Positions 1,150-17,526 of a stretch of DNA of 40,927 nt are shown one piece after another. The position numbers and the translations under genes were made by a program. Below the pieces are notes generated by a model. That model saw only the letters and a list, made by a program, of their open reading frames with translations. It was not told the DNA's origin and did not search any database. The stretch lies in IMG/VR virus record IMGVR_UViG_2541047877_000008; one strand, written 5' to 3'. The stretch comes from a virus. Lineage: Duplodnaviria > Heunggongvirae > Uroviricota > Caudoviricetes. Each line of letters begins with the position of its first letter. Position 1 is the first letter of the stretch.

Positions 1150-1862
1150 GCCTATAAGGCTCTCTTACCAGCCGCGCCCTAACAGGCGCACACGATCTGA
1201 CATTTGCATCCAACTTCGTTACTTACGGCCCGTAAACGGGCTGCCCGGATAGGGAATCGATAACTGCTCTCCCATTTTATCCTCTTCAAGCTGGTGCTTT
1301 ATGTAATCCTGTATCTTCGCCGTGTTCTTACCCACTGTATCGACGTAGTACCCTCTGCACCAGAACTCCCTGTTCCTGTATTTGAATTTCAAATCACCAA
1401 ACTGCTCGTAAAGCATCAGACTGCTTTTCCCTTTCAGATATCCCATAAACCCGGATACGCTCATTTTAGGCGGGATCTCCACAAGCATATGGATATGATC
1501 TGCACAGCATTCAGCTTCCAGAATCCGTACGCTTTTCCACTCACACAGCTTTCTCAAAATACTGCCTATTGCTCTACGCTTCTCTCTGTAGAACACCTGT
1601 CTTCGGTATTTTGGCGCAAAAACTATGTGATATTTACAGTTCCATCGGGTGTGCGCTAAGCTCTTTTCGTTCCCCATTGGGACCCCCTTTTGATTTCTTG
1701 TTTGACACTTGCAGTTGCCAGACCGCAAGGTGTTTTAACAAATCAAAAGGGGTTTTAATAACTGGCTCAAAGCTGAAAGCTTTCCGGAACCCCCAGCCTA
1801 GCTGGGGGTTTTCTGTGCACAAAAAACCCTCTGTAGTAACAGAGGGTTTTGTTCATTCATAG
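1150..1862 (-). mobile_element. IS200-like insertion sequence (IS200/IS605 family); boundaries approximate
   Basis: Contains the Y1 transposase gene 1219-1677 and, upstream of it, two perfect stem-loops (1790-1808 CCCCAGC-CTA-GCTGGGG; 1823-1850 AAAACCCTCTGT-AGTA-ACAGAGGGTTTT) typical of the structured IS200 left end; expected size about 0.7 kb. Ends not determined precisely. Confidence 0.55.
1219..1677 (-). CDS. tnpA: IS200/IS605-family transposase TnpA (HUH Y1 transposase)
   Basis: Track ORF 1219-1728; start moved to internal ATG at 1675-1677 (MGNEKSLAHTRWNCKYHIVFAPKYRRQ..., 152 aa) with strong SD AAGGGGG upstream; sequence pattern HxH...Y characteristic of IS200 TnpA. Confidence 0.85.
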   Translation of the reverse strand: MGNEKSLAHTRWNCKYHIVFAPKYRRQVFYREKRRAIGSILRKLCEWKSVRILEAECCADHIHMLVEIPPKMSVSGFMGYLKGKSSLMLYEQFGDLKFKYRNREFWCRGYYVDTVGKNTAKIQDYIKHQLEEDKMGEQLSIPYPGSPFTGRK

Positions 1863-1999: not shown

Positions 2000-2482
2000 C
2001 TATCTGGTCAGGGTGTCGTACTGTTTTTCACAGACTCTTCCGGCTTCGGCTGCCCGGTCAGCATACTCTGCCAGTTGTCTGTTTCTCTCGAGAGATTTAC
2101 TGAGCACGTCGGCAAGCAAAACTCCGGTGTCTGCGGCTGACGTCCCAGCGCCGACAATGGCGTTATACTGCCTGAGCTGCTCACGGATGGCAACGAGCTG
2201 TTGCTGCAACCGGCCAGCGCGAGCGGCAGCATCAAGAGCATCATTGCGCGCCTGGTCGATCCTCTGCTGCGCTTCACGTTCATTGATCGCTTTCTCCTGT
2301 TCGTAGTGCTGACGAATTCTCTCATCTTCGGTTTTGCGGTCTTCTTTCGCCTGCGCATACCCGGCGTCGTACTGACGACTGCCGTGTACACTCCAGGCAA
2401 CAACTCCTGATATGACCAGAACAGCAAGCACCGCCATGATAATCAACTGTTTCCGGTATGCTTTTACGAATGCCAAGATCAT
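2000..2482 (-). CDS. i-spanin (Rz-like): N-terminal TM helix plus periplasmic coiled coil
   Basis: ORF track 160 aa; hydrophobic [15 protein letters not shown] followed by a Q/R/E/A-rich coiled coil; last gene of the lysis cassette; 4-nt overlap with endolysin stop. Confidence 0.6.
2008..2244 (-). CDS. o-spanin (Rz1-like lipoprotein) embedded in an alternative frame inside the i-spanin gene
   Basis: Within track ORF 2008-2427; internal start [17 protein letters not shown] (ATG at 2242-2244) gives lipoprotein signal plus LAGC lipobox and a Pro-rich, Cys-containing mature part (about 78 aa), fully inside the Rz ORF. Confidence 0.55.
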   Translation of the reverse strand: MMLLMLPLALAGCSNSSLPSVSSSGSITPLSALGRQPQTPEFCLPTCSVNLSRETDNWQSMLTGQPKPEESVKNSTTP

Positions 2483-3108
2483 ACCGCCAGCACCTTACTG
2501 GCATTGATGTATCGCGCGCGCCGGTCGTCGATGCCGTTCCGGCCACCATTGATAATCAGAGTTACACGTGCAATATCGCCGGTATACTTCATGCATCCTT
2601 TGCTGGCAAAGAACCACGCCGCGCTACGAGCCGCGTATTCGTCCTGCGCCAGCAGTTCAGGACTCTCCAGCAGGTCAACCTTAAGACCGTTTCCACAGTC
2701 ACGATAGTTATTCAAACCGGTAACCTGGATAAGCCCGCGCCCACGGTAGTTCCAGCCATCACCAGGGGCATTGTTCCCCATGCGTTTGCTGTACACCAGA
2801 TTGGCAATCGCTCTCTGGCGCTCAAGTGGCAATGGTGGTTCGCCTGCACGTCGCCCCAATGCGTTGGCCTGTCCCTGAGTGAGACGCCCAGCCCGAACAA
2901 AGTTAGCCAGTCCGCTGACGCTGTAGTTGAAATTCTCCTGCAACCGGGTGAAGCCTCCAGACTCATGCCCGACCTGAGCAATAAACATAGCCTGATCTTC
3001 TGGTTTGCTGATACCAAACTCTTTCATCGCAGAAGTTATATGCGAGAACCAGCGTGCGGCCAGTGCCTCGCTGATACCAGCAGCTCGCTGGAATTGTTTA
3101 ATCTCCAT
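2479..3108 (-). CDS. Endolysin, glycoside hydrolase family 19 (chitinase-like) type
   Basis: ORF track 209 aa; motifs [28 protein letters not shown] recognised as GH19-type phage endolysin; position between holins and spanins. Confidence 0.7.
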
Positions 3109-3406
3109 GTTTAGACCTCGATACTTTGAAAATTTGAACGACGTTACCGCGCGTTTTAATAACCGCAGCTAGCATGACAGCGTTGATAATGACCTCAGAT
3201 AAATCCACAGCCATTGGCGTACGTAACCAGATTGCATAGGCGACACGAACAGGAATACTGGCCGCAGCAACAATCAGGAAATAAGCAAGCCATCCTCCCC
3301 ACCTTCGGTGTTGAGAGCCGTTACGCCGGAATGTGACAACGCGAATTGCTATGCCAGTGCAAATAACTGCATTGGTGATAAGCAAAAAAAACTCATGCGT
3401 TACCAT
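3098..3406 (-). CDS. Holin-like small membrane protein
   Basis: ORF track 102 aa with 2-3 predicted TM segments, immediately upstream of endolysin and overlapping it. Confidence 0.5.
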
Positions 3407-3806
3407 CGTCTTTTCTCCCCGGAATTAACTCGCGTGGATTATCGGAACGGTGATAGAGCCATATACCAATACGCACAGCGACAATTGCTGACACGAATGC
3501 GCCTGCAGAGAAAACAATCCCTTTTTCAAAAGAGTCCTGCGTGATGGTAGGGATCAGGCTGGCTATGCCGATAAGAATTGATGCTGCTGGTTTGTAAAAG
3601 AGAAGGCCGCAAAGAAAGCTGAGCATCGACAGGAGCACCCGGCGACGGATGGGGTACTCTACTGCAGAGGTAACAAAAATTACCGCTCCAGCCAAAGCAC
3701 CCAAAGCAACCTCAGGAGGAACTCCTGCTATCACCGCCGCCAGAGAACTCATGCTAAGCCACTGATTTAAAGTTTCACTGGTTAGTTGAGCTGACATGTT
3801 TTCCAC
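3393..3806 (-). CDS. Holin/antiholin-like membrane protein
   Basis: ORF track 137 aa with multiple hydrophobic segments; first gene of the lysis cassette; overlaps next gene by 14 nt. Confidence 0.5.
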   Translation of the reverse strand: MENMSAQLTSETLNQWLSMSSLAAVIAGVPPEVALGALAGAVIFVTSAVEYPIRRRVLLSMLSFLCGLLFYKPAASILIGIASLIPTITQDSFEKGIVFSAGAFVSAIVAVRIGIWLYHRSDNPRELIPGRKDDGNA

Positions 3807-3999
3807 CGTTTATATGCATAACAACCTCCTGAACAGTAAAGCATTACGCATAATAAACCATTTATGGTTTTTTGTTACTTTAACATCGTCAATTCCCTGT
3901 TTTTCATGCCGAGAATAAAGCTCACCTTTTACATGACTCTGAAGAAACAAACAGTGAAGAGCAGGTTGAATACCGCACCATTTAATGGCGCGGTAGCAG

Positions 4000-4296
4000 T
4001 CAAATAGAGAAATAAACACAAAAACAAAAAACAACAGGAACAGCAAAATCCAACAGACTTCCCACATCCCACACGCGTGGATCAAAACCTCCCCACCACG
4101 GCATGTTGATACGTTTCCCTTTCCCAAACTTTTCTATCCAGCGATATTCTGCCTGGGTGTGTTCACGCGCAATGAAGAACGTACAACCGGCTATCGCACC
4201 GTAAGCCCAGTTTCCGGTAAAAATACCAACCAGTACCTGAGCCACAAAAGCGCAAAGCGAGTGAAGAAATGGAGTGACATCAATGCTCTTAATCAT
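4000..4296 (-). CDS. Small two-TM membrane protein translationally coupled to the tailspike gene (function unknown)
   Basis: ORF track 98 aa; start overlaps tailspike stop (ATGA-type overlap at 4293-4296); two hydrophobic segments; followed by an AT-rich 190-bp spacer before the holin gene. Confidence 0.4.
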   Translation of the reverse strand: MIKSIDVTPFLHSLCAFVAQVLVGIFTGNWAYGAIAGCTFFIAREHTQAEYRWIEKFGKGKRINMPWWGGFDPRVWDVGSLLDFAVPVVFCFCVYFSI

Positions 4297-6482
4297 GAAA
4301 CTTCCCCATTGGTTGAAAATATGGCTCCTCCAACGCCAAGTGTATTTCGTGTTGTGCTCAACCTCAGAGGGCTGGAGTCAGAATTAGAATATCCTGTAGC
4401 AGAAATAAAAGATCCTCCACTAATAGTCAACTGCGGAACATCGGCTATATCTGAATAAGTTCTGTCAGCAACAGTATTATTTATAGCCACATATGATCCA
4501 AAAAAACTTCTTATTGTTTGGTTTTTAACTTTACTTCCTTCAATGGTTATCCTACTACCACAGTCGGCAATAAATCCTGAATCTGCATCCAGCGTTGCAT
4601 TCATAAAAGAAGCTTCAGATCTCTCTACATCAATCCATCTAATATCTTTTGTGGGATTTGCACCAAATACATGACAAATATTAGAGTTAAACCTTACACC
4701 ATCTTGGAGGTGCATTAATTTTTTTATATCTGTACCCCATAGCCTTGGAAAATTAACAGATGCTCCTGCATGGCAATCAAATCCCAGCTCAGCCCCTGAG
4801 ATATCTACAGCCTTTCCTGAAATAACAGCACCAGTGTCTGCATTAACGGCTGTTCCACAATTGCGCATATCATTACCAGCAACATCAACGCAACCCGCAC
4901 CATCAATACGCACACCAAGTGCACATCCATAAAAACCTTTTTCAATATTTGGTTCAAGGACTTTACCACTTGTTTCTGCATCACTTTCTTCAACGTCATG
5001 TCGTCTTGCATCAACATATGCTGTATGAATGCAGGTTAATCCACGATATGAGCAATGTATAGTTTTATGGTCGCGTATATTAACATTTGAACCATCTCTT
5101 ACATTCCATCCTATATAACAATAGCTTGCACTTGACCCCTGAAAATCTGCTTTAACATTATAAATACAATTAACTGACGCAACCGTACTCTCTGTGCACC
5201 GTTCAAACTTGCTTACAGGCATTGATGCCTTGACATTATTTACCAGTTGCAGGGAAGAGTATCTGCTATAAGAAAAATCACATACGTAATACCCTTCTGG
5301 CATATATGCAGCAACACTTTCCTCATCAGGAGCACATCCGGTATGATATGCACTAATTTTTGCACCAAAACTACCATGAATTCCAACGTAGAACTTTCGA
5401 GCACCTGAATACGGATAGAAATTAAGTTCAGCTTTTTGAGTTACAATAAATGCACAAACATCGCTATCATCTCTATTTTCTTCGATCTGAATAGCAAATA
5501 CAGGACTTTTTGCTGCATCGCAAATGTAAAATAAATACTTGTATTCGTAATACGTTCTAACGATTTTAGTAAACAAACGAGTGTCAGAGAAAACCACTGA
5601 GTCTTCTGATGTTATTTTAATCCAAGACAAATCAACACCTGAACTGAATTCAATTTGATAGTTGATAATATGCCCGGTCTTAATTCTTATTTCGCAGAAA
5701 GCATTACCACCATCCCACATAGGTCTCATTGACTGGGCTGCAATGATTGCATCTTTGAGTGTAGGGTAATCACCCCATTCGCCAACAGTAATAACAAAAG
5801 TATAATATGAGTTAAAAACAGCGGCATTTTTGCCTTTGGATATCAACTCCTTAATCATAAAAATATTATCTTCGTAATCACAAGGAGAAATTATATCCCT
5901 CATTTTGCTTTGAAATGTTCGTTGTCTTGCCCCGCTTCCTGACGGTATAAACCAACCAAAACCACCAACAACCCCGGCGATTGCAGCATCGACATAATTA
6001 CGCATTGAGCGATTATTTACAGCGTCCTGCTCAAATGATGGATCTGCAAGGTTAGAAATTTTGTTTTGCTTTGCATCGTAATATTTTGCAAGCAAAGATG
6101 GTTTCATCAATGCACGTCTGAACCACCCAAAACATCGCTGGATCAGCATCGTCAGGTAGTCAAATGCATCTTCATGAACTTCGGGGAAAAATTTTCCCTG
6201 ATTGCGAAGATCAGTCTCCTGCACCACATCAAGCACACGCTCTATCGTAATTCGCCAGCCAGCAGCAAGCGGCGACGGGAGAACCACTTCACCGCCACTA
6301 TAAGTGCCCGCTCCAGTTACCTTATAACCGGTATCCAGAACCAATTCTGTTACGTTCCCGTTCAGGTCAGACACCTGAACAACCAGGTCGGTTTTTTTGA
6401 AAATACGGAAGGTATACGGAAATGATGTCGTAACGCCGTTACCGGTGTATTCGTTGTGGTCAACTTCGGTTGAGACCGTCAT
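4293..6482 (-). CDS. Tailspike / receptor-binding protein with T7 gp17-like N-terminal attachment domain
   Basis: ORF track 729 aa; N-terminal about 170 aa (NEYTGNGVTTSFPYTFRIFKKTDLVVQV...) resembles the particle-binding domain of T7-type tail fibers; remainder is Ser/Asn/Gly-rich and encoded by markedly AT-rich DNA (about 4300-5950). Confidence 0.75.
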   Translation of the reverse strand: MTVSTEVDHNEYTGNGVTTSFPYTFRIFKKTDLVVQVSDLNGNVTELVLDTGYKVTGAGTYSGGEVVLPSPLAAGWRITIERVLDVVQETDLRNQGKFFPEVHEDAFDYLTMLIQRCFGWFRRALMKPSLLAKYYDAKQNKISNLADPSFEQDAVNNRSMRNYVDAAIAGVVGGFGWFIPSGSGARQRTFQSKMRDIISPCDYEDNIFMIKELISKGKNAAVFNSYYTFVITVGEWGDYPTLKDAIIAAQSMRPMWDGGNAFCEIRIKTGHIINYQIEFSSGVDLSWIKITSEDSVVFSDTRLFTKIVRTYYEYKYLFYICDAAKSPVFAIQIEENRDDSDVCAFIVTQKAELNFYPYSGARKFYVGIHGSFGAKISAYHTGCAPDEESVAAYMPEGYYVCDFSYSRYSSLQLVNNVKASMPVSKFERCTESTVASVNCIYNVKADFQGSSASYCYIGWNVRDGSNVNIRDHKTIHCSYRGLTCIHTAYVDARRHDVEESDAETSGKVLEPNIEKGFYGCALGVRIDGAGCVDVAGNDMRNCGTAVNADTGAVISGKAVDISGAELGFDCHAGASVNFPRLWGTDIKKLMHLQDGVRFNSNICHVFGANPTKDIRWIDVERSEASFMNATLDADSGFIADCGSRITIEGSKVKNQTIRSFFGSYVAINNTVADRTYSDIADVPQLTISGGSFISATGYSNSDSSPLRLSTTRNTLGVGGAIFSTNGEVS

Positions 6483-6602: not shown

Positions 6603-6677
6603 TCGCAAAACGTGCTGGATAGCAAACAAATTATTTGCTACTGTATAAATATACAGTTATTGCATGGAGAAGATAAG

Positions 6678-6935
6678 ATGCAGCAGTATCACTATCCACT
6701 GGAAGACGGATTTACCGAAAGGATTCACACGCCGGGAGGCGTCAGGTCACTGGTGGAGGGATCGCATTTGATGAAATTACTCCGGGATCTCGATAAGGAT
6801 GGATTTAATGTCGATGGCCCACTTGCCGAACTGACTGCACTGATTAACTACGTCACCAGCTCACAGATGTCTATGCGGGATCTGCAAACACATCTCGACT
6901 ATTGTGCCGAACAATTACGAAAACAAACCAGATAA
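6678..6935 (+). CDS. Small protein paralogous to the C-terminal domain of the antirepressor
   Basis: Within track ORF 6612-6935; ATG at 6678 preceded by GGAGAAG; C-terminal about 55 aa align with the C-terminus of the 7249-7935 product (LMxLL..L..DG..V.G..AELT....Y.......RD.QTH..Y). Confidence 0.5.
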   Translation: MQQYHYPLEDGFTERIHTPGGVRSLVEGSHLMKLLRDLDKDGFNVDGPLAELTALINYVTSSQMSMRDLQTHLDYCAEQLRKQTR

Positions 6936-7095: not shown

Positions 7096-7248
7096 ATGTG
7101 TAAAGCGCACCTATTCTATGGTGGGCTGTGTGGGGGCACCGAAAGGTGCGCCGGGTCCTTTGTAGCCGGTTACGCCAACCCTGCACAGTTCACCACCAAC
7201 CGATTGGCGTCGGTAGTGGTGATTAACCTAACTACAAAGGTGATCACT

Positions 7249-7935
7249 ATGACTGCTAACGTAACCCCATCTGTTTTTCATTTTGAATCAGAAGCAACCA
7301 TTCGAGCCATTGTTATTGATGGAAATCCTTGGTTTGTTGCCAAAGACGTTATTAAAGCTCTTCAACTGACAAACCCCACTATGTCAATAAAATCTCTTGA
7401 TGATGATGAAAGGGCTAAATTTAACTTAGGCCGTCAAGGCGAAACCAATATTATCAACGAGTCAGGCCTCTACACACTGATCCTCCGCTGCCGCGATGCA
7501 GTAACACCAGGCACTATCCCCTACCGCTTTCGCAAATGGGTTACAGGTGAGGTACTTCCTCAGATCCGCCGCACCGGAAGTTACATTAAAAACTCGCTCC
7601 CGCAAGAAGAACGCATAAAGATGGTTGCCGACCAGGTAGCCAACGCCACGGCGTCAGCAGTGATGCAGGCAATGAAGATAGAGAACAAAACCTACAGCGC
7701 CCCACTGAAGCCCGGCTACCGCAGCCTGATTCACTCGCCGTCTGGTGTTCTCGGCCTGACGGAGAACTCACTGCTGATGAATCTGCTGAACCAGTTACAG
7801 GAAGACGGGCACGACGTATCGGGCGCGGCGGCGGAGCTGACCACCATGTTCTGCTACATCGTCGGTGTGAGTAAATGCCTGCGTGATATCCAGACCCACG
7901 CGGAATACATCAACGACAAAGCAGGGTTCTTCTGA
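7249..7935 (+). CDS. Antirepressor-like protein with N-terminal Bro-N domain
   Basis: Track ORF 7096-7935; ATG at 7249 with SD AAGGTGA; N-terminal IRAIVIDGNPWFVAKDVIKAL matches the Bro-N fold common to phage antirepressors; located between ejection genes and tailspike like P22 immI. Confidence 0.7.
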   Translation: MTANVTPSVFHFESEATIRAIVIDGNPWFVAKDVIKALQLTNPTMSIKSLDDDERAKFNLGRQGETNIINESGLYTLILRCRDAVTPGTIPYRFRKWVTGEVLPQIRRTGSYIKNSLPQEERIKMVADQVANATASAVMQAMKIENKTYSAPLKPGYRSLIHSPSGVLGLTENSLLMNLLNQLQEDGHDVSGAAAELTTMFCYIVGVSKCLRDIQTHAEYINDKAGFF

Positions 7936-7977: not shown

Positions 7978-8021
7978 TTGCAGACTGGGGGTGAATAGCG
8001 TACTATTACCTTAAAGGTAAA
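7978..8021 (+). promoter_or_regulatory. Promoter (TTGCAG-17-TACTAT) overlapped by operator-like palindrome ATTACC-TTAAA-GGTAAA
   Basis: -35 7978-7983, -10 8001-8006, palindrome 8005-8021; about 25 bp upstream of the strong RBS GAGGAGGAG of the 8047 gene. Confidence 0.5.
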
Positions 8022-8046
8022 CCATGTGTTTACATGAGGAGGAGAT

Positions 8047-8256
8047 ATGGGATTTTGGTTCGCTCGTACAAAAACGAGGGATAATGCACCCAGCCCTCAG
8101 GCAAAAAATGCAGAAGTTCCGGCGTCAGCGCAGGTTAACAAGCGTGGTGGTGTGTATATCTCATCACAGCAAATTTCTGAGCTTCCTGAGGTTAAGGAGA
8201 TGCGTCGTCTCGCTGCTGCAATCGTTAAACAGGATCTTGCCACTGTAAGGAAATAG
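8047..8256 (+). CDS. Small hypothetical protein, first gene of the accessory cassette
   Basis: ORF track 69 aa; strong SD GAGGAGGAG 8036-8044; stop overlaps the GTG start of the next gene (TAGTG). Confidence 0.5.
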   Translation: MGFWFARTKTRDNAPSPQAKNAEVPASAQVNKRGGVYISSQQISELPEVKEMRRLAAAIVKQDLATVRK

Positions 8257-9119
8257 TGTTGTTAGCTCTTCTAATTATCCCCATTCTGGTTAGTGGTTAT
8301 ATTATGATAACCGCTAACCAGTATCATTATTTCCGTTTATACCGACATGAAGGCCAGCTTCTTTATATGAAAGTTGCTGCATTAGGTACATATTGCCTTG
8401 TTGCTTCGGTAATAATTGCCGCATTTATAAAATATAAATATCCTGATTTTCACCTAGTTCACGATATGGTGGAAACTTTTAATGTAACGTCAAAACCAGA
8501 AACAGATAGAATTTACATGTGGCTACTTCTTCTGTCAGTCACATCAATTTGCTTCTCTTTGTGTTATGTATCTTTTGTTTGGCTAAAAGATCTTCTTTTA
8601 GGTTGTTTTTATAAACGTGATATTTATGACAAAATATCAGAGGCAATGAAAGCTAGGGTATTGCGAAAAACGTACTCCCAGGGTTCTTTAGATTTGCTAT
8701 TGCTTGATGCAATCGAATCAGATCCTAAGAAACCAATGTTAATTACTTTATCATCAAATAAAGTATACGTTGGAATAATAAATGGTTCTGGTGAGCCAAC
8801 GGAAAATCAAGGGCCACACCAACACATATCTTTTGTTCCTTTAATGTCAGGGTACAGAAACAAAGAAAATTTATCTGTTACATTTACAAACGCTTACCCA
8901 GGTGAAATCCAAATTAAGCGCAGTGCTGCGATAAAAGGGATAAGCAAAAAGAAAGTTCAAGGTCTAGAAATTATGGTATCTATAGACGAAATAAGTCATA
9001 TATCATGGTTTGACTTTGAAGTATATAAGGCAACAAATAACAAAGTAGAAACAAAGGGTCATGTTGTTAATGTGACCAAAAATGGTCGCAACATATACTA
9101 CAGAAGTGGCAGAAAATAA
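8256..9119 (+). CDS. Membrane protein (about 3 N-terminal TM helices plus about 175-aa soluble domain), AT-rich cargo gene; candidate superinfection-exclusion/defence component
   Basis: ORF track 287 aa, GTG start coupled to upstream stop; hydrophobic segments in first about 110 aa; DNA strongly AT-rich relative to neighbours; no motif recognised. Confidence 0.5.
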   Translation: MLLALLIIPILVSGYIMITANQYHYFRLYRHEGQLLYMKVAALGTYCLVASVIIAAFIKYKYPDFHLVHDMVETFNVTSKPETDRIYMWLLLLSVTSICFSLCYVSFVWLKDLLLGCFYKRDIYDKISEAMKARVLRKTYSQGSLDLLLLDAIESDPKKPMLITLSSNKVYVGIINGSGEPTENQGPHQHISFVPLMSGYRNKENLSVTFTNAYPGEIQIKRSAAIKGISKKKVQGLEIMVSIDEISHISWFDFEVYKATNNKVETKGHVVNVTKNGRNIYYRSGRK

Positions 9120-9135
9120 ATTTTACGCAGTTTAG

Positions 9136-9648
9136 GTGGCTTATATGGATAATACTATCTTAGGCGCATTGATAGGTGCAGTTATTGCTATAGTTTCCAC
9201 TTATATAAATGCAGGACAAGGATACAAAAACAGCATAAGATTAGAGCGACAAAAAATATTAAGGGATAAACGCGAGCAATTATTTATAAATTGTATACTT
9301 ACTAAAAAAGTCATAGATTCAAGCACAATTACCATTCTCAATTTCGTAAAAAATGCCAGATACCACTCTGATAGTAAATTTGACGTATCAAGAGCGAATC
9401 CGTTGCAAACGATGGAAATGCTAATAAACATATACCTTCCTGAGTATAAAAAAGACTTACAAGAACTCAATAATGCGTATCAAGAATTTCACAAATACTA
9501 CTCTCAATATACATGTGCACATACCTTCAAAAATATGCCTGATAATGAGAAGTCGAGGTTTATTGAGGAGGCTGATTTTTATGCAAAAAAGATATATGGC
9601 AAACTTAATGATATTAAGGACAAGATATCATTAAACTCAATAGTATAA
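9136..9648 (+). CDS. Membrane-anchored protein (single N-terminal TM, K/E-rich soluble domain), AT-rich cargo gene
   Basis: ORF track 170 aa; N-terminal ILGALIGAVIAIVSTYI hydrophobic helix; AT-rich; 16 nt downstream of previous gene. Confidence 0.5.
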   Translation: MAYMDNTILGALIGAVIAIVSTYINAGQGYKNSIRLERQKILRDKREQLFINCILTKKVIDSSTITILNFVKNARYHSDSKFDVSRANPLQTMEMLINIYLPEYKKDLQELNNAYQEFHKYYSQYTCAHTFKNMPDNEKSRFIEEADFYAKKIYGKLNDIKDKISLNSIV

Positions 9649-9723
9649 CAGCGATACTGCTGCTGACGGCTCCCGCTGCGGTGGGCGTTCTGCGGATTCC
9701 CGCCCAGGCGGCGGTGGCATTCG

Positions 9724-14471: not shown

Positions 14472-16981
14472 TGAGGAATATCTCCGGAGAATCTCTGACG
14501 CTTCTGTGTCAGATTAAGAACAACGGGAGAACCATCGTCTTTCAGCAGATAACCAGTACCAAGTTTCACCAGGTACTGACTATCGCCGTAACTTTGCAAA
14601 CCATACTGACCAGGCGGTGTTTTTATCCCGGAGCCGACAACTTGTTCATTCCAAGCCTGATTAACCTGCTTATCGAATTGCTCTGCAGACATTCCCCACG
14701 GCAAAAGGACATTCCCCATTCCGTTATAGTCATGCACGCCACCTGTAGCTACGTTAACAGCCTGTTTCCAGACATCATTGTCAATTTCGCCTGATACCAC
14801 GCCTTTTTTCGCCATCACACCAGCGTAATAATCCTTTGCGATCTCGTATGCCATTGATGCCCCCTGAGCGTCACCAGCAAATGCATCCTTCACCATGTCA
14901 GAAAACTCAAGGCGAAGATCAGCATCTTTAGGCATCGGAATACCTTTCGCATCATCAGTACCTTTACGAGCCGCCGCGCCAGCAATAATTGTCTGCGCAG
15001 CGGTTTCAGGAGACACGGAAACATCCGGATTAAACCAGTTTTTTTCTGCCAAAATACCACCAGGCTTATCCATCAGTATCCCGGCAACGGCAGCAGATGG
15101 AGCGTTGGCGCTGATCTGCTGTAGTGCTGACATATACACCTGCCCACCACCAGTGCTCTGCCTGATGGTATCGAGATATGCTGCCTGTTGGGAAACGGGC
15201 GCATCACGAAAGAAAACACCGATCTGATTGGCCTCGTCTTTGGAAAAGAACGTCAGTGGAGTGCCATATGACTTAGCAAGGTCACTGACCTGAGCAGCAC
15301 GCAAGGCAACGCTCTGTCCAAAGTTATCCTTATTGCTCATGTCGATAGGCTTTGCCTGTCCGGCGGAAAGAGAGAACTGTACAGGATCAGCCTGTCGCTG
15401 CTTTATCACCTGACTTGCAGCCGACACAACGTTGTCATAAAGAGCGGCTCGTGCCGCATAACCCTCCCCTGTCTCACCAGTATCCGGGCGTAATTGCTCA
15501 ACATATGCTGTAATGCTGCTTGTCGGCATGTTGCGGAAAGAGCCTATATACTGTCCGGCGATTTGCGTATTTCTGAACTCGGTATATCGCAGGTTTCCTT
15601 CTCTTACTCCATAAGCTGCAATAAAATCAGCCTCACCAGGTGGGTTAGGAAATTCAACGCCACGCATATACGCAGCTGTCGCATCGCGAACCTGACTGTC
15701 AATCATCGTTTTATATTCAGCCTGCTGCTGCCGACGCAGTTGACCCGCCTGTCGCATAAAACTTGCCTGCGCCTCAGGAGATGCCGCATCGAATGCTGCA
15801 TTACCGGTATAGCGTTTGGTGTTGGTTGGAATTGTTGATAAACCAAGTGCTGCACTGACACCAGCAGTTAACTGCTGATCACTGTATGGCTGGCTACCGT
15901 TCTCATGATGGATAATGGCTGCACAAAGCGCCTTCAGGGTATCAGGATTTGATGCATCGAGAGGCTCATCAGCAGAAACGCCAAGTTGTTCGCACACCGC
16001 TTTGATATACGACATAGTGTCATTTTTATCAGCAGGCGGTGCCCAGCGATTAATTATCTCGCTGACGGTATCAATACCCTGCCTCTGATACGACATCAGG
16101 TTCCGCCCTAATGCACGAATCCCGTGTTCAGGTGTTTCGAATTTAGCAAATCGACCATCATCACCGGTCTGGCCTACCCACGGATTAGTTTTGCTGTATT
16201 CGAGATTTCCTGGGTTATTGTTGCGTATGCCACGGGCACGCTCGGAAGAGTCACTATCTGCTACAGCACGGCGAGCTCCAGCAGCAGTATCACTTAACTC
16301 GCCATTACTTTGGATGAATGCGGTCGCATTGTTTGCCGACCACTGGGACAATGCAGCATCAGCAACCTTCTCTTTAAACTCGATTTTCTTGGCCTGGATT
16401 TGCTCGTTGCTCCAGCCATGTGCAACACCGTACTCCTCAATTTGCTGGAAAGTTTGCTTGTTAGCCAATACGTATGCGGCGTTGTCGCCATACAATGCTG
16501 CGGCATTTTTACCATTGTTCAGCAGTGTCGCCTGAAACTGGCCTTCTTCGTAGGCATTAATTTGCCCTATCTCGTGTCGCCCGGCCTGCGTAGTGAACTG
16601 AATGCGCTGCTGCTGCGCCTGCTGCATGAAAGCATTACGAGCCTGTTCATCCGGCAGAGACATAGCCAGTTGTTCGACCTGAGCATCAAACTGCTGCGTA
16701 TACTCATGGCCTTTTCCAATAGCATTTTTCCCTTTCAGGTTAAGCAATCCTGTTTCAGGATTATTCAGCAGATCGCTGCTTATCTGACTGAGGTTAAGAG
16801 ATGCCTCCTGAGCCAGAGCGATATTGGCACGCTGTTTTGCCTGCCCCAAAACATCAATTGCCTCTGCCCCTGCCCGAACAAAAGCATCACCAATACCTGG
16901 CTGAGAAAACGTCTGCAAGCCTGCTGACTGAACTCCACGGCTCTGAACCTGACGGCCGGATACTGTTGGTACGACTGGCAT
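14468..16981 (-). CDS. Large internal virion protein, possibly with a virion-associated cell-wall hydrolase domain
   Basis: Track ORF 14468-17056; start placed at ATG 16979-16981 (SD GGAGG; TAATG overlap with upstream stop). Segment RGIRNNNPGNLEY...FETPEHGIRAL is reminiscent of structural lysozyme-like domains (unverified). Confidence 0.55.
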   Translation of the reverse strand: MPVVPTVSGRQVQSRGVQSAGLQTFSQPGIGDAFVRAGAEAIDVLGQAKQRANIALAQEASLNLSQISSDLLNNPETGLLNLKGKNAIGKGHEYTQQFDAQVEQLAMSLPDEQARNAFMQQAQQQRIQFTTQAGRHEIGQINAYEEGQFQATLLNNGKNAAALYGDNAAYVLANKQTFQQIEEYGVAHGWSNEQIQAKKIEFKEKVADAALSQWSANNATAFIQSNGELSDTAAGARRAVADSDSSERARGIRNNNPGNLEYSKTNPWVGQTGDDGRFAKFETPEHGIRALGRNLMSYQRQGIDTVSEIINRWAPPADKNDTMSYIKAVCEQLGVSADEPLDASNPDTLKALCAAIIHHENGSQPYSDQQLTAGVSAALGLSTIPTNTKRYTGNAAFDAASPEAQASFMRQAGQLRRQQQAEYKTMIDSQVRDATAAYMRGVEFPNPPGEADFIAAYGVREGNLRYTEFRNTQIAGQYIGSFRNMPTSSITAYVEQLRPDTGETGEGYAARAALYDNVVSAASQVIKQRQADPVQFSLSAGQAKPIDMSNKDNFGQSVALRAAQVSDLAKSYGTPLTFFSKDEANQIGVFFRDAPVSQQAAYLDTIRQSTGGGQVYMSALQQISANAPSAAVAGILMDKPGGILAEKNWFNPDVSVSPETAAQTIIAGAAARKGTDDAKGIPMPKDADLRLEFSDMVKDAFAGDAQGASMAYEIAKDYYAGVMAKKGVVSGEIDNDVWKQAVNVATGGVHDYNGMGNVLLPWGMSAEQFDKQVNQAWNEQVVGSGIKTPPGQYGLQSYGDSQYLVKLGTGYLLKDDGSPVVLNLTQKRQRFSGDIPQ

Positions 16982-17526
16982 TATAATCCTCCGGGTAATC
17001 TGGTTCCTGCTGCTGCCCCGATTGGCGCAGGGGTGCTTTGAGTAAACGGACTCCACGTCCCACCAAACATCTGGTACGCACCGTATGCCTTCAGAGGCGC
17101 AGTGAGCAATGTTGTTGCTGCTCCCACATTCCCCTGTTTACGGGCTGAACTGGCTTCTGCTTTATAGTTGGCAGCCTGAACCTGATAACCGTAAGCCTCG
17201 CGTTGCGCGTTATTCACCGTCGTCAGCGAATCAAGAGCGCCAAACTGGGCAGTGTCGCCAAATATATCCAGCGCGTTACCGGTAGATAAATCGGCGCCGG
17301 TCGCCCCCATTGTCGCCGCTTGAGTACCAAGCCGCTGTCGGGTCTCTCTGCGCCGTTGCTCAGCTTCAGCGTTACCTCTGTTTATTGCATCATTTGCCTG
17401 AGCTGTGGCTATATCTGCGTTCGCTTCTGCAACCTTCGAGGCATACTTTCCCTGTTGGTACTGGGTGTATGCCTGAATGCCACTCATGGCGAGCATTGCG
17501 CCACCAGCAATAACCGGATCGCACAT
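16981..17526 (-). CDS. Internal virion protein (T7 gp14-position; N-terminal hydrophobic segment)
   Basis: ORF track 181 aa; Ala/Gln-rich; coupled to downstream gene. Confidence 0.45.
   Translation of the reverse strand: MCDPVIAGGAMLAMSGIQAYTQYQQGKYASKVAEANADIATAQANDAINRGNAEAEQRRRETRQRLGTQAATMGATGADLSTGNALDIFGDTAQFGALDSLTTVNNAQREAYGYQVQAANYKAEASSARKQGNVGAATTLLTAPLKAYGAYQMFGGTWSPFTQSTPAPIGAAAGTRLPGGL

Follow-up and report, generated by a model that had tools for sequence, protein, structure and literature searches.

Positions 4,000 to 6,482 of a 40,927-nucleotide (nt) stretch of viral DNA (IMG/VR record IMGVR_UViG_2541047877_000008, Caudoviricetes; the whole stretch is referred to here as the window) raise two questions: where the receptor-binding part of the tailspike encoded there came from, and what the small membrane protein encoded directly behind it might do. 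A first-pass annotation, made from the sequence alone, had described the tailspike as a mosaic in which a T7-type N-terminal anchor is fused to a horizontally exchanged, AT-rich distal domain, and had suggested that the 98-amino-acid (98-aa) protein downstream could be a lysogenic-conversion factor acting on the same receptor. Very probably, this is the tailspike gene of an E. coli prophage of the epsilon15-like (Uetakevirus) kind, a gene in which a conserved anchor is joined to an exchangeable beta-helix host-range module acquired by recombination. The elements of the locus are as follows (ORF, open reading frame; TM, transmembrane helix).

4293..6482, minus strand: tailspike ORF, 729 aa
5931..6482, minus strand: anchor of epsilon15/Uetakevirus type, residues 1-184, predicted beta-sandwich plus helical neck
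5874..5930, minus strand: joint motif RQRTFQSKMRDIISPCDY, residues 185-203, where anchor-type and distal-type homologies overlap
5620..5873, minus strand: proximal part of the distal module, to about residue 287, AT-rich and without a close relative
4293..5619, minus strand: main predicted beta-helix body, residues about 288-729 plus the stop codon, putatively receptor-binding and probably glycan-degrading
4000..4296, minus strand: 98-aa ORF, predicted three-TM protein, phrog_1443

Residues 1-165/173 of the tailspike are 66-70% identical to the tailspikes of epsilon15, phiV10, SPN1S and related phages, and residues 1-203 are 91-93% identical to those of ZX5, phiv142-3 and EC.W1-9, with similarity disappearing beyond residue 203. 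The Uetakevirus tailspikes (epsilon15 gp20, phiV10 gp25 and phiv142-3 orf6/ZX5) resemble the present one in N-terminal anchor, gene position and prophage backbone, but their distal domains are unrelated to it after residue 165-203. The distal part has its relatives elsewhere: residues 185-729 are 89% identical to the spike of the P22-like Lederbergvirus JEP4 (also HZ41 and 92CQ) and 48% identical to that of the SP6-like Vectrevirus VEc3. Within this part, none of 22 family members exceeds 53% identity over residues 186-285, whereas over residues 286-729 the P22-type spike P0002 is 98-100% identical. Full-length homologues are near-identical copies of the same mosaic only, found in 11 of 5426 complete E. 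coli genomes and in Escherichia phage HEMP4 (over 4000-6482, identity is 100% with E. coli MS 198-1 and 99.5% with HEMP4). In PHROGs the tailspike matches phrog_5662 ("tail fiber protein") end to end, and residues 1 to about 166-206 alone match about 20 other tail-spike and tail-fibre families. Pfam and NCBIfam returned zero matches for the full-length tailspike and the 98-aa protein alike.

A nucleotide mosaic map, drawn as 60-nt sliding identity against phiv142-3 and JEP4, resolves the region into the following stretches.

6700-5930: about 93% nt identity to phiv142-3
5930-5620: without a close relative (over 5620..5873, JEP4 is 48-60% and phiv142-3 13-50% identical in nt sequence)
5620-4040: 98-100% nt identity to JEP4
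4290-3800: 73-100% nt identity to phiv142-3

The gene is a three-part mosaic composed of a Uetakevirus anchor, a proximal stretch without a close relative and a JEP4-like segment. The JEP4 spike bears a P22 head-binding N-terminus (PF09008), and the proposed horizontal exchange of a host-range module is supported. In JEP4, HZ41 and P0002 the DNA for residues about 288-729 and for most of the small gene is 98-100% identical to ours, and JEP4 has the same ATGA-type overlap between spike and small gene; in contrast, residues 186-285 of JEP4 and P0002 are only 46% identical, and the small gene of JEP4 is followed by int where a lysis cassette follows here. The left crossover of this recent exchange lies inside a family-invariant DLSWIKITSED block and the right crossover lies inside the 98-aa gene, about 40 nt before its end. 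The joint motif, whose consensus in the distal family is RTQHDKNxExxxPxDF, is likely an old crossover site.

These positions suggest how the tailspike may have been assembled. Residues 1 to about 184 would form a beta-sandwich and a helical, probably trimerising neck that fixes the spike to the tail hub, and residues about 204-729 an extended right-handed parallel beta-helix for the recognition, and probably the cleavage, of a host surface polysaccharide; because it would recognise the host polysaccharide, this distal domain would set the host range. Recombination at conserved sequence blocks would move the distal module between phages as an exchangeable cassette, with an older junction at the joint motif (residues 185-203) and a more recent exchange that presumably ran into the present tailspike and brought most of the 98-aa gene along with residues about 288-729; P22-like phages contain the same DNA. 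Since the 98-aa gene is conserved behind many kinds of receptor-binding gene, it can serve as the 3' homology arm of such exchanges.

The distal-domain family is small, comprising only 23 clusters among 5.8 billion proteins searched, and it occurs in combination with five or more further types of anchor. Its members begin with PF09008 (P22 head-binding), PF18668 (TSP1/gp66-N), PF12571 (tail-collar), PF03906 (T7-tail) or no Pfam anchor, and two of them, P0014 and P0017, carry an extra C-terminal SGNH esterase. Neither uniform composition across the gene nor full-length colinearity with a single homologue family, which together would have spoken against a mosaic, was found. Exchange of tailspike receptor domains is the main host-range route of temperate Enterobacteria phages, and what we describe belongs to this familiar and ordinary class of host-range module exchange; its recent recombination tract is unusually sharp. 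The locus does not overturn current understanding. It provides a clean, datable example, in that a near-identical segment of about 1.6 kb is common to an epsilon15-like and a P22-like phage and both crossover points fall in conserved blocks. New here are a beta-helix receptor-domain family outside Pfam and an uncharacterised small gene that trails receptor-binding genes; a beta-helix family without a Pfam model and a very common small membrane gene would both be useful for phage engineering and annotation.

Base composition follows the mosaic, and measurement of guanine-plus-cytosine content (GC; GC3 at third codon positions) confirmed that the DNA of the distal part is lower in GC than the prophage. 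Codons 1-185 have a GC of 0.47 and a GC3 of 0.44, codons 186-729 a GC of 0.377 and a GC3 of 0.24, and the 98-aa gene, with a GC of 0.451 and a GC3 of 0.414, is back to backbone composition; the GC of the whole window is 0.483. Only 2% of 1635-nt windows fall below the GC of the distal part, all of them within a second island at about 8000-9650. The fall in GC begins near codon 100, slightly 5' of the protein junction, and ends at the tailspike stop codon.

Low GC is shared by other distal receptor-binding cassettes. In phiv142-3 orf6, whose distal domain is unrelated, that domain has just as high an AT content (GC 0.364, GC3 0.256), and taken together the cassettes of phiv142-3 orf6 and the JEP4 spike, which are of different types, range from 0.36 to 0.39 in GC and from 0.22 to 0.29 in GC3, below their phage backbones. 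Because unrelated distal types are all AT-rich relative to the backbones, this suggests a common low-GC pool of distal receptor-binding cassettes.

The distal domain itself was recognised by structure rather than by profile. Pfam was empty for the distal 544 aa even at E <=10 (including Pectate_lyase_3, Beta_helix and Pect-lyase_RHGA_epim), and a GDSL/SGNH domain is absent from the tailspike by Pfam, so that the pectate-lyase and SGNH models proposed for checking the domain found no match. A confident AlphaFold2 model built with the family alignment (predicted local distance difference test, pLDDT, 93.7; predicted template modelling score, pTM, 0.89) is almost all-beta with repeated strands, and the domain models as a beta-helix resembling known depolymerase tailspikes. 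Its nearest solved fold is gp15 of the Staphylococcus epidermidis phage Andhra (8EGR), a 534-residue triangular beta-helix related to polysaccharide-degrading enzymes (PMC9710869); further fold matches are Vag8, the cyanophage Pam1 spike, Klebsiella K1 depolymerases and lyases, alginate epimerases, the CBA120 TSPs and phi29 gp12. Andhra gp15 and the present domain are 17% identical with no detectable sequence homology, the N-terminal attachment differs, and the Andhra host is Gram-positive with a teichoic-acid receptor. Across homologues 37-89% identical, the invariant polar residues include D284, D294, E335, R337, R362, K363, D402, R462, D463, R470, H486, R493, D538, R540 and R580, and such residues are concentrated between positions 284 and 580. 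Conservation is 50-82% in the central helix turns and 23-73% at the distal end.

The N-terminal part is a conserved attachment domain, as the first-pass annotation had it, and its kinship to T7 is remote at best. Residues 1-165 are 70% identical to epsilon15 gp20 (E 5e-62; 67% for phiV10), and among proteins of known structure only Dpo31 of Cobetia phage Carin-1 is similar in sequence (8CK1 and related entries; residues 1-202 here and 1-207 of Dpo31, E 2e-31). The D1 domain of Dpo31 is a beta-sandwich seated at the virion base, and its D2 domain forms a coiled coil (PMC13317679). Dpo31 and the present anchor are alike in this arrangement of beta-sandwich and coiled-coil neck, but the catalytic distal domain of Dpo31 is unrelated. 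The anchor family extends to BPP-1 Bbp9, BcepC6B gp18, the HTVC010P-type pelagiphages, Pseudomonas Ab31 and others, and it is joined to many different distal domains.

Comparison with T7 gp17, whose N-terminal domain (PF03906) likewise fixes a trimeric fibre to a podovirus tail, gave weak colinear matches. BLASTP returned one colinear 22-residue stretch at E 0.043; the PF03906 profile scored 15.8 bits against a cutoff of 25.2 (E 0.011, residues 135-161 only), the full-length protein being without a match; and hhalign of the anchor with PF03906 gave a sub-threshold probability of 5% at E 0.007, colinear over 12-93 against 8-86. A direct T7 link was set aside, all three methods being below threshold. 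A weak indirect link runs through Xanthomonas phage SAC gp24, which matches the anchor at E 3e-14 and PF03906 at E 4.8e-4 across the whole profile (positions 10-149 of 157). A preprint places PhiXacm4-11 gp36, a gp17 homologue, between adaptor and nozzle (10.64898/2026.02.16.706137); gp36 and SAC gp24 are of equal length and could be the same protein. A genuine PF03906 anchor is present on the distal-family member P0012, which makes the T7-type and epsilon15-type anchors alternative, distinct modules. As judged from sequence comparison, the anchor is of epsilon15/BPP-1 type and possibly a distant relative of the T7 domain.

We weighed two other accounts of the distal part. In one, the composition changed without any transfer, through amino-acid and codon constraints of a beta-helix in a gene that evolved in place. 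An equally AT-rich unrelated cassette in phiv142-3 and a GC fall that starts inside the conserved anchor speak for it, but we consider it extremely improbable, as the change is concentrated at third codon positions, near-identical DNA occurs in a phage of another genus with another anchor, and the homologue sets of anchor and distal part are disjoint. In the other, the beta-helix is a binding-only adhesin, setting host range by glycan or protein receptor binding without cleavage. Many invariant acidic, basic and histidine residues lie in the central helix turns, and the centre is conserved above the distal end, as expected of an active-site groove; the podovirus beta-helix spikes of Enterobacteria are mostly enzymes, and the SGNH esterase added in some family members suggests a polysaccharide substrate. 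On these grounds a pure adhesin is unlikely, though less so than evolution in place, and we lean towards a distal domain that binds glycan and probably cleaves it.

Several points weigh against our account of an acquired, glycan-degrading module. Low GC alone is not diagnostic, given that other distal cassettes are AT-rich too. Searches of the distal domain with Pfam, NCBIfam and phmmer against the Protein Data Bank (PDB) gave no match; the invariant polar positions offer candidate catalytic residues only, and cleavage is a proposed activity. The structural model is a monomer prediction, from which a trimer would have to be assumed. Andhra gp15 is without demonstrated enzyme activity (PMC9710869). 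Finally, MS 198-1 and 118UI carry an identical spike but differ in their O-antigen clusters, which does not pin down the receptor.

The last point concerns the suggested O-antigen or capsule specificity, which our searches did not establish. The MS 198-1 lysogen has an O11-type O-antigen cluster and the 118UI lysogen an O15-type cluster, so that no consistent O type accompanies the spike, and an attempt to read the receptor from lysogen O type was abandoned for this reason. The O11 wzy gene occurs in 66 genomes; among the 60 listed, one (MS 198-1) belongs to the 16 genomes with this receptor domain. While the O clusters of MS 198-1 and 118UI differ, their neighbouring islands are very similar (Ag43 and CP4-44-like genes), which would fit one clonal background in which the O antigen was switched after prophage acquisition. 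A literature search on HEMP4, the host receptors of JEP4, VEc3 and 'Ybl63' found nothing, and the paper on phiv142-3 orf6 deals with another distal domain.

We turn now to the 98-aa protein. As first described, its gene is coupled to the tailspike gene (its ATG and the TGA of the tailspike gene share the sequence ATGA, directly preceded by a G-rich stretch) and its product is predicted to be membrane-embedded. Helices are predicted at residues 8-27, 30-57 and 78-97 (pLDDT 90), of which helix 1, helix 3 and the N-terminal half of helix 2 (30-43) are hydrophobic; residues 44-77, which take in the rest of helix 2 (44-57), form a K/R-rich loop (7 K/R) that is presumably cytoplasmic. The family has a conserved motif, GRE(H)xQAEYRWI...MPWWGGFDPRxW, and comprises 428 clusters at 90% identity and 453 at 50%, all stand-alone proteins of about 95-100 aa annotated as "hypothetical" or, once, "Ybl63". 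Pfam, NCBIfam, PADLOC and a fold search were all without a match to the 98-aa protein, and 67 distant family members matched no Pfam family, a single Phage_holin_8 match at E 0.0036 being at chance level. In RefSeq (PGAP) the annotated product has 94 aa, its start being placed 12 nt downstream of the overlapping ATG (window 4284-4296); the PGAP start codon reads ATT in the window, and the JEP4 record takes the overlapping start.

We examined 10 contexts of the 98-aa family in prophages of three tail morphotypes (podo-, sipho- and myovirus). In all 10 a receptor-binding gene immediately precedes the small gene, and the two often overlap.

Uetakevirus, the present prophage and phiv142-3: 98-aa family gene behind the tailspike gene
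P22-like JEP4: small gene between the spike gene and int
Lambdoid prophages and Jouyvirus 1H12: small gene after side-fibre or S74 genes
Comamonas prophage: small gene after a gpJ-like protein
Aeromonas and Leclercia P2/HP1-like prophages: small gene after tail-collar fibres
Salmonella prophage with several tailspikes: 98-aa family gene behind a receptor-binding gene
Metagenomic relative: small gene after P0014

Three of the upstream receptor-binding proteins were compared directly with this spike and have unrelated distal domains; the others differ in Pfam architecture. Family members 56-89% identical thus occur behind unrelated receptor-binding proteins, which argues that the 98-aa protein is not tied to this receptor, and no covariation of the family with the receptor specificity of the adjacent spike was seen in the contexts examined.

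These contexts bear directly on the suggestion that the 98-aa protein is a conversion factor that modifies the spike's own receptor. In favour of it, the gene occupies the exact slot that holds the O-antigen polymerase and alpha-polymerase inhibitor in epsilon15 and oac in phiV10; in JEP4 it sits between tailspike and int, which is where P22 has gtrABC; and its product is membrane-embedded by prediction. However, epsilon15 and phiV10 carry the conversion genes of this slot on the other strand, where they are divergently transcribed (in epsilon15 behind a terminator that follows the spike gene), whereas the 98-aa gene is co-oriented with the late genes and overlaps the late spike gene start to stop. 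No promoter or terminator signal separates the two here, in a scan whose counts around the junction were at background level and uninformative. The composition of the gene is backbone-like, not cassette-like, the protein does not align to the epsilon15 alpha-polymerase inhibitor, and it has no similarity to the Gtr, Oac or Wzy-type families in Pfam and NCBIfam. A protein that follows unrelated receptor-binding proteins in every context examined and resembles no known conversion protein is very improbably a conversion factor for one receptor, and that part of the first-pass annotation did not hold up. The most economical reading of the 98-aa protein is a receptor-independent membrane factor (a superinfection-exclusion or entry-block protein, or a late envelope or lysis accessory) whose conservation also gives a 3' recombination arm, a reading that we hold as a serious but tentative possibility. 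It accords with the position directly behind receptor-binding genes across three tail morphotypes, the strongly conserved motif on the K/R-rich loop, the constant stand-alone length and the right crossover of the JEP4-like segment inside the gene. Against it, PADLOC was empty and homology to the SieA, Imm, Cor, Llp, HK97 gp15 and holin families was not found, so that any functional role is conjectural. By extension, phrog_1443 could represent a widespread uncharacterised class of membrane proteins linked to receptor-binding genes and having a general function, such as an entry block at the inner membrane or late envelope action, while doubling as the arm through which receptor-binding cassettes recombine across unrelated phages; in this broad form the proposal is speculative and, in our judgement, rather unlikely.

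The remaining window is an epsilon15-like prophage with virion proteins and, at its far end, an integrase; the host genes yfgH and yfgI lie at the near end. Gene order is as in Uetakevirus, with the tailspike gene upstream of genes for a gp23-like protein, holin, endolysin and Rz, and both flanks of the tailspike gene are about 93% nt identical to Uetakevirus phiv142-3. Downstream of the 98-aa gene lie the following.

3393..3806, minus strand: epsilon15 gp23-like membrane protein or holin, 93% identical to epsilon15 gp23, PF16931; downstream edge of the slot
3098-3406, minus strand: holin; matches to PF05449/PF00182 and phrog_217/phrog_181 cover holin and endolysin together
2479-3108, minus strand: GH19 endolysin, covered by the same matches

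A 105-aa ORF with a TTG start (3810-4127, minus strand), which covers the 3' end of the 98-aa gene as well as the 190-bp spacer ahead of the gp23-like gene, matched no NCBIfam family and was set aside as probably spurious. At the window edge, yfgH (glycine-zipper/TraT-like) occupies 1-516 and yfgI (DUF5384) 532-1071, which places the integrated prophage beside yfgI, and an IS200-family transposase gene (1219-1728, minus strand) is inserted beside the Rz end of the prophage.

Upstream, between the tailspike gene and the virion genes, are an anti-repressor (Ant/BRO-type) gene at 7096-7935 on the plus strand and, preceding it, a 107-aa ORF at 6612-6935 that is apparently a partial duplicate, as it matches only the C-terminal part of the same families (phrog_450, phrog_15539). 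The second low-GC island (8001-9650; GC 0.32-0.35, GC3 0.27-0.30) contains two plus-strand ORFs: 8256..9119, encoding 287 aa with a hydrophobic N-terminal third (phrog_3630), and 9136..9648, encoding 170 aa (phrog_36918) with a sub-threshold match to PF11071 (nucleoside 2-deoxyribosyltransferase-like; E 0.004). This island is without a PADLOC match and missing from the otherwise similar MS 198-1 prophage, and it may be moron or defence cargo. RefSeq names in this prophage include 'virion core protein, T7 gp14 family' (equivalent to window 16981-17526) and 'Bbp16 family capsid cement protein', names in keeping with a deep T7/BPP-1-like ancestry for particles of the epsilon15 type.

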